Source of the DNA: Candidatus Heimdallarchaeota archaeon | GTDB lineage: Archaea; Asgardarchaeota; Heimdallarchaeia; Heimdallarchaeales; Heimdallarchaeaceae | Assembly (NCBI GenBank): GCA_021399345.1 | Contig: JAAFKI010000112.1 | Location: 64,001-128,000, forward strand | DNA length: 64,000 nt | Reading direction: 5' to 3' | Shown here: one piece after another, positions 45,955 to 46,335 of the stretch | How the letters are laid out: each line of letters starts with the position of its first letter | Numbering within the stretch: the stretch's first letter is position 1 | Translations under genes and position numbers: made by a program | Notes under the pieces: model-generated | Told to the model about the DNA's origin: nothing | The model's input: only the letters and a program-made list of their open reading frames with translations | Databases searched by the model: none

Positions 45955-46335
45955 AGATAGTGTGCGCTTCAGCACCTGCCTGTTTCGCAACTACACAAGT
46001 GGTTGTCTCTCAGTGAACTTACAATGAAACGGGGAGCCTAGCTAGCTCTATGCTGAAGGTCCACTTACTATTCCAGAACAAAGTCTGGATGACTTCCCCT
46101 CAACGCACGTGAGGGGACCCACTTAAACGACGGTTAGAAAGCCTCTGGCAAGTTTAACCAAGTTTCATAACGTGCGTGATACAGGTATCAGGGGAGCAAG
46201 ATGAAAAACTTGCAGCACACGAACATTCATCTTAGCTCAGATCCTGATCCTTAGCAGACGAAGTGTCTGCGGTAGTGAGTGTTTCAGCAAGAAACAATCA
46301 GCGCGATAGAGATCAACCAGATAGAAGGTTGATCA
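45955..46335 (+). ncRNA. Unrecognised highly structured RNA (~380 nt) with a pseudoknot
   Basis: ORF-free and more GC-rich than its flanks, with more than 10 helices. G-U wobbles work only on the + strand. Loop ACGCACG (46103-46109) is complementary to CGTGCGT (46171-46177). TATA box upstream. Confidence 0.78.

Follow-up and report, generated by a model that had tools for sequence, protein, structure and literature searches.

The closest described systems are the TnpB omega RNAs, or reRNAs, of IS200/IS605 and IS607 transposons, such as those of ISDra2 and CboIS607. In these, the right-end RNA stops at the element boundary and the flank supplies the guide, a pseudoknot lies beside the guide, the RNA of full-length copies extends over the 3′ end of tnpB, and the empty site brings a left-end TAM-like motif back next to the target. 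Recognition of the vacant allele has been shown for both IS605 and IS607 TnpB (10.1101/2023.03.14.532601, 10.1101/2023.11.20.567912). IS607 elements make no target-site duplication, use a shared core dinucleotide and, on excision, restore the TAM plus target (10.1101/2023.11.20.567912). ORF-less, PATE-like IS elements of Geobacillus stearothermophilus often encode omega RNAs that are used in trans (10.1101/2023.03.14.532601), and IStrons, which combine a group I intron with TnpB, carry a second structured RNA on the omega RNA transcript (10.1101/2023.11.20.567912).

Here we analyse a 64,000-nucleotide stretch of a Candidatus Heimdallarchaeota archaeon genome, hereafter the window, whose own positions are used throughout; features lie on the + strand unless stated otherwise. 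Positions 45823–46177 very probably constitute a mini IS607/TnpB element that carries an omega/reRNA-type guide-RNA gene, and the remainder of the structured stretch around it an unrelated host element. The insert has the organization of the TnpB omega RNAs: its predicted right-end RNA stops at the boundary where the flank would supply the guide, its pseudoknot adjoins that guide, the 3′ end of tnpB runs into the same module in full-length copies, and in the empty site its left-end TAM-like motif again adjoins the target. It differs from them in lacking sequence or Rfam similarity, in having a large associated TnpB (642 amino acids) with a histidine at RuvC-III, and in an upstream half that is a dedicated non-coding domain with a TATA promoter instead of tnpB coding sequence. 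Like the PATE-like elements, it is protein-less and keeps both ends and the guide RNA, with TnpA and TnpB presumably supplied in trans. Unlike those bacterial IS605 elements, with their Y1 transposase and single-stranded DNA hairpin ends, it is an archaeal element of the IS607 (serine recombinase) type, and its 5′ RNA domain has no counterpart in the autonomous element. The second structured RNA recalls the IStrons, but the group I intron signature is absent, with nothing relevant among the Rfam covariance models at E ≤ 10 in 45600–46700, and a splicing function is not needed since the insert lies in an intergenic region. New here are the Asgard lineage, the dedicated promoter and a 5′ domain that is not derived from tnpB.

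A mobile insertion with a precise empty site

When the structured stretch was searched against 40 relatives, the query split exactly at 46177: positions up to this point are repeated at many unrelated loci, and positions from 46177 on occur once per genome, with the left part missing. In the locus alignment, six relatives (G018, G011, G024, G009, G013 and G006) have window position 45823 fused straight to 46175–46177. Their empty site reads ACCGT|GATACAGG, with ACCGT present once, or over a longer span ...CCTGACCGT|GATACAGG...; the occupied site reads ...CGTGCGT|GATACAGG..., so that the flank at the right boundary is the one that directly follows ACCGT in the vacant site. Contig joints in the metagenome runs X1, X17 and X20 likewise skip 355/356 nt at this locus. 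Because relatives and metagenome contigs carry this precise empty site, 45823–46177 (355 nt, with boundaries ambiguous by a shared 4-nt CGTG) is, on comparative sequence evidence, an insertion particular to the lineage of this genome, and the insertion at this locus is recent. The G+C content of the 391-nt stretch is ~47%, compared with 33% for the window.

Fourteen of the family's 31 genomes, a second genus among them, have copies of the element at other loci. Within the genome of the window, 46093–46177 is a repeat found in 12 places, several of them at contig ends. All of these copies stop sharply at 46177, and each carries a different sequence after ...CGTGCGT, the point at which identity between copies ends. 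Five contigs of this assembly (G000) end or start inside the repeat's 83-nt module (C107:1-81, C27:6509-6596, C119:5545-5626, C109:21932-22013 and C104:19-103), and in run X1 the loose ends show a match to another mini-element sub-family, the second (...CAATCATGATTCTCATGATT...). Mini elements that are present in multiple copies and were left unassembled are the probable break points of the assembly.

The insert lies ~70 nt upstream of a gene for a 49-aa membrane microprotein, between it and a 47-aa gene of the same − strand operon (45602–45751 and 46400–46543). It may uncouple the expression of the two genes in this genome.

IS607-type ends and transposase

The insert contains no ORF between 45823 and 46177, and tblastn found no TnpB relic beside either the window copy or the copy on contig C16. 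It is therefore identified, from the sequence of its ends, as a non-autonomous mini derivative of an IS607-family transposon. Its left end (45823–45909) is shared with autonomous elements: positions 1–43 of the insert match the left ends of elements that carry TnpA and TnpB (nhmmer; E = 5e-6 for locus L052), and the sub-terminal motif AAGTTGACTAATCTTGCCA (45841–45859) is found ~16 nt past ACCGT in full-length copies too. This motif forms an imperfect inverted repeat with 46146–46164. Right ends are 85–98% identical to that of the autonomous element, and within this genome the modules of the full-length copies are 85–95% identical to that of the insert.

The ACCGT target motif (45818–45822), a putative TAM that includes the GT core dinucleotide, adjoins the left end and flanks most mini and full-length copies, with the variants ACTGT and ACAGT. 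Target, left junction and right end all carry GT (ACC-GT|...GC-GT|G), and a target-site duplication is absent, in agreement with the published behaviour of IS607 (10.1101/2023.11.20.567912). In some full-length copies, a TnpA gene is seen just upstream of the TnpB gene. In L052, for example, a 197-aa ORF directly upstream of tnpB matches MerR (9e-12) and Resolvase (1.4e-21), and this MerR-HTH plus Resolvase protein is a predicted IS607-type serine transposase. The 88.6%-complete assembly of the window's genome yielded no intact TnpA gene, fragments only (C89:6840-7181, truncated, in the C89 copy, and C88:50201-50335), along with four intact TnpB genes; TnpA may have been lost from this genome or may lie in unassembled sequence.

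A large TnpB/Cas12f-type protein, the probable partner

In four places of this genome, the 83-nt repeat sits at the 3′ end of an ORF of 642–650 amino acids, with an overlap of ~18 nt, and across Candidatus Heimdallarchaeota assemblies (AB_125 included) the module follows or overlaps the end of the ORF in 34 of 35 TnpB loci. The 642-aa ORF is a TnpB/Cas12f-type protein. It matches the Pfam model Cas12f1-like_TNB at gathering score, and its C terminus matches the NCBIfam models guided_TnpB and Cas12f2 below their curated cut-offs. In phmmer comparisons, it aligned with CnCas12f1 (PDB 8hr5) at 4.7e-6 and with a TnpB structure at about 1e-2. An AlphaFold2 model of the protein has a pLDDT of 87 and a pTM of 0.78, and Cas12f, TnpB, other Cas12 or Fanzor2 make up all of its 50 top-ranked Foldseek matches, with probability 1.0. 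An example copy lies at L009:2094-4019 (G000, contig C89). A neighbouring 432-aa ORF that had been suspected as TnpB is a DEAD-box helicase.

Of 1.84 billion cluster representatives, only 158 belong to the family of the 642-aa protein at E ≤ 1e-3. Invariant residues of this family are D433, E532 and His617, the last of which occupies the position of the RuvC-III aspartate of Cas12f and TnpB (motif NTHxNAA versus NADxNAA). Branches with a D-to-H change have been discussed as probably active (PMC10691335), and cleavage by the His-bearing protein is assumed here.

The 83-nt right-end module

A preliminary description of this DNA had listed a set of helices in 45955–46335, all of which are present at or within a few bases of where it placed them. 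Those within the insert fall into two modules. The right-end module (46095–46177), the candidate 3′ module of an omega RNA, consists of a hairpin at 46095–46117, a second at 46132–46159 and a pseudoknot between the loop of the first (46103–46109) and the terminal 46171–46177. The helices are TCCCCTCA/TGAGGGGA, GGTTAGA/TTTAACC and the pseudoknot ACGCACG/CGTGCGT. In a MAFFT alignment of 40 copies, 93% of cells are paired in this hairpin, pseudoknot and hairpin arrangement, and 9 of 25 pairs have changed on both sides, among them 4 of the 7 pseudoknot pairs, which bears out the pseudoknot that had been proposed from the one sequence. None of 500 shuffles reaches the observed count, which is also far above that of slid controls.

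G-U pairs are in large excess over A-C mismatches in the right-end module (57 versus 14), in the 5′ domain (91 versus 33) and in the host element (51 versus 9). All three biases fix the + strand, the strand that the preliminary description had read from the G-U wobbles.

On the mini copies, RNAalifold favoured a nested form of the pseudoknot. Its alternative 3′ hairpin scored 0.095, compared with 0.137 for the hairpin originally described (40 copies). In one TnpB-associated copy (L070:682-777), the loop of the first hairpin is inverted, with ACGTGCGT in place of ACGCACG, a change that would abolish the pseudoknot. Modules of the second genus (g10; L098, L100 and L111) have an extra hairpin (...AAGGGTGAAACCCCCTT...) between the two module hairpins.

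Predicted promoter and 5′ domain of the ORF-less copies

Downstream of the left end, the insert carries a T9 run (45910–45918) and an archaeal-type TATA box, TTTATATA (45926–45933), 24 nt before the first helix. The TATA box that the preliminary description had noted is thus present and conserved: it is kept in all mini-copy sub-families examined, and copies whose sequence was read have the same order of left end, T-run and TATA box ~24 nt ahead of the first helix. Together, the T-run and the TATA box are predicted to form an archaeal-type promoter that belongs to the element itself. A weak resemblance between this region and the sequence that immediately precedes tnpB in full-length elements suggests that the ORF-less copies arose when internal sequence was deleted and the leader left behind then evolved further.

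The structured 5′ domain (45954–46093, 140 nt) is closed by a helix between 45954–45962 and 46062–46070, and contains helices H1 (45967/46051), H2 (45979/46026), H3 (45987/45999), H4 (46034/46045) and H5 (46072/46084). Helices CTTCAGCA/TGCTGAAG, CCTGTTTC/GAAACGGG, GCAACTAC/GTGGTTGT and TCCAGA/TCTGGA were tested for covariation. In a 27-copy alignment that was fitted to a covariance model and hence favours structure, 23 of 43 pairs have changed on both sides, with 86% of cells paired; none of 500 shuffles of these copies reaches the observed values. Compensatory changes are already present in the 12 nearest copies, among them changes in the closing helix, which the preliminary description did not list. 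Sub-families of the domain differ in hairpin sequence and share the same layout. In one copy of G017 (L104:1350-1630), part of the domain is duplicated in tandem.

The covariance model of the domain (R1) finds copies in 14 of the 31 genomes of the family, again including the second genus, and all are ORF-less. Copies truncated by contig ends aside, every complete copy examined has the 5′ domain joined immediately before the 83-nt module. The model has no match in 32 TnpB-bearing loci, even at E ≤ 10, and there is little conserved structure upstream of the module in full-length copies, where RNAalifold gave scattered pairs and one copy had z = −1.9.

A separate host four-hairpin element

To the right of the insertion lies a four-hairpin element (46178–46345), with hairpins at 46183–46251, 46254–46270, 46272–46304 and 46311–46334, which occurs once in this genome. 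The element is real, conserved in structure and independent of the transposon. It folds alone, with z = −5.6 on the + strand and −6.5 on the − strand, and at least 12 of the 31 genomes have a syntenic homologue between the genes for the 47-aa and 49-aa microproteins; the weaker covariance-model matches beyond the seven close orthologues all lie between homologues of the same two genes. In a model-fitted alignment of 17 sequences, 29 of 49 pairs have changed on both sides, so that the three hairpins that had been described here (46187–46248, 46254–46270 and 46311–46334) are real and covary, although in a host family separate from that of the insert. The seven close orthologues alone show one compensatory pair, their variation being too small for a judgement. 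The strand bias of the element places its structure antisense to the microprotein operon. The opposite orientation of the structure and its absence from cassette B, both pointed out in the preliminary description, are explained partly by the insertion and partly by this antisense host element.

Rfam had no match at E ≤ 1 in three empty-site loci, and the ORFs in 46178–46400 are frames of 21–26 amino acids, none of them convincing. Among the contigs of public runs, the sole one whose run is recorded as RNA (X19, a metatranscriptome) spans 46300–46557, strand unknown, and lies outside the insert. G006 and G013 each have a second copy of the host element, placed between the microprotein paralogues of 138 and 49 amino acids (L136:1501-1667 and L138:1501-1633); the corresponding spacer of the window (47713–47788, 76 nt) is without one.

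Discussion

The preliminary description had treated 45955–46335 as a single host non-coding RNA of ~380 nt, closed by 46051–46070/46273–46289 and able to switch between two folds. The whole stretch does fold better than shuffles (z = −5.4 on the + strand, −3.2 on the − strand), its minimum-free-energy fold uses the long-range helices, and read-through from the element's promoter could give a chimeric precursor in this genome. A single evolved RNA is nonetheless hardly credible, because six relatives hold the right half alone and other loci hold the left half alone: the 5′ 60% (to 46177) is the mobile insertion and the 3′ 40% (from 46178) is host sequence. Both of the proposed long-range helices, CACTTACTA (46062) with TAGTGAGTG (46273) and TGCTGAAG with TTTCAGCA (46282), join insert to flank. 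The conserved partner of 46062–46070 is instead TAGATAGTG at 45954–45962, inside the element, with AU-to-GC changes, and TTTCAGCA forms its own local hairpin, GTTTC/GAAAC, in the host element. The two-state switch falls with them, in that only 45967/46051 covaries and the competing partner at 46282 is host flank missing from other copies. Complementarity between element and flank, measured by local scoring (RNAduplex on whole halves gave over-long duplexes), is marginal at most, being reached by 12 of 300 dinucleotide shuffles under strict settings and 53 of 150 under lax ones. Read-through may yield a transcript spanning both parts in this one genome, but such a precursor is not an evolved unit. 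As for known classes, the stretch indeed matches no Rfam model of RNase P, SRP, tmRNA, group I/II introns or IS605-orfB motifs: Rfam gave no match in the window at gathering score, and ARAGORN found no tRNA or tmRNA. The missing Rfam match is confirmed, but a new class of RNA is not supported; what very probably lies here is a variant of the TnpB guide-RNA type beside a separate host element.

The structure at 46095–46177 could also be a DNA-level feature, a right end bound by the recombinase in a plain MITE whose RNA has no role. The module is a transposon end that must be recognized by TnpA, and an imperfect inverted repeat links it to the left end. Yet IS607 recombinases act on double-stranded DNA and require neither hairpins nor a pseudoknot, the compensatory changes in the pseudoknot and the strand bias of 57 G-U to 14 A-C speak for RNA, and the ORF-less copies keep a TATA box and a covarying 5′ domain, which together make this explanation very unlikely. 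A different question is whether the 140-nt 5′ domain belongs to the guide scaffold or is cargo with a function of its own, for instance in stability or processing, in regulation, or as a decoy that competes for TnpB. The domain is never found beside TnpB genes and yet is under strong structural constraint across differing sub-families, as cargo might be; against this, the complete copies examined all have it fused to the upstream side of the 83-nt module, and it matches no Rfam ribozyme or RNA family, and we regard cargo as rather unlikely. Somewhat more plausible, although still doubtful, is the broader proposal that the ORF-less elements are a ‘guide-RNA-only’ hyperparasite lineage whose 5′ domain aids the guide, through loading, stability or processing, or has acquired a new function, and that the host element is, independently, a new class of regulatory RNA.

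If 45823–46177 is a mini IS607/TnpB element with a guide-RNA gene, TnpA supplied in trans could move it, both transposon ends being kept. The element would be transcribed from its TATA box, and the RNA would cross the right end and finish in the flank from 46178, which would serve as the guide. We infer this guide function by analogy with TnpB systems; the putative guide segment (46178–46197), read through from the scaffold, takes its length from them by assumption. TnpB from full-length copies could then load this omega/reRNA-type RNA in trans, and the complex would recognize the vacant site, ACCGT followed by GATACAGG..., in which the candidate guide-match sequence beside the TAM is GATACAGGTATCAGGGGAGC. 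Cutting or binding of the vacant site would favour retention or re-copying of the insert.

Heimdall-group Asgard archaea are the prokaryotes closest to eukaryotes. The present analysis documents in them an active-looking family of protein-less transposons that carry a promoter-driven guide RNA only and that appear to rely on TnpA and TnpB made elsewhere. These elements provide a natural setting in which to ask what a TnpB scaffold needs and how parasites that consist of a guide alone compete. Those who mine genomes for new RNA-guided nucleases may take an interest in the large TnpB, given its RuvC-III histidine, and in the compact, conserved 83-nt module, and the host four-hairpin element adds a separate conserved RNA structure without a known family.
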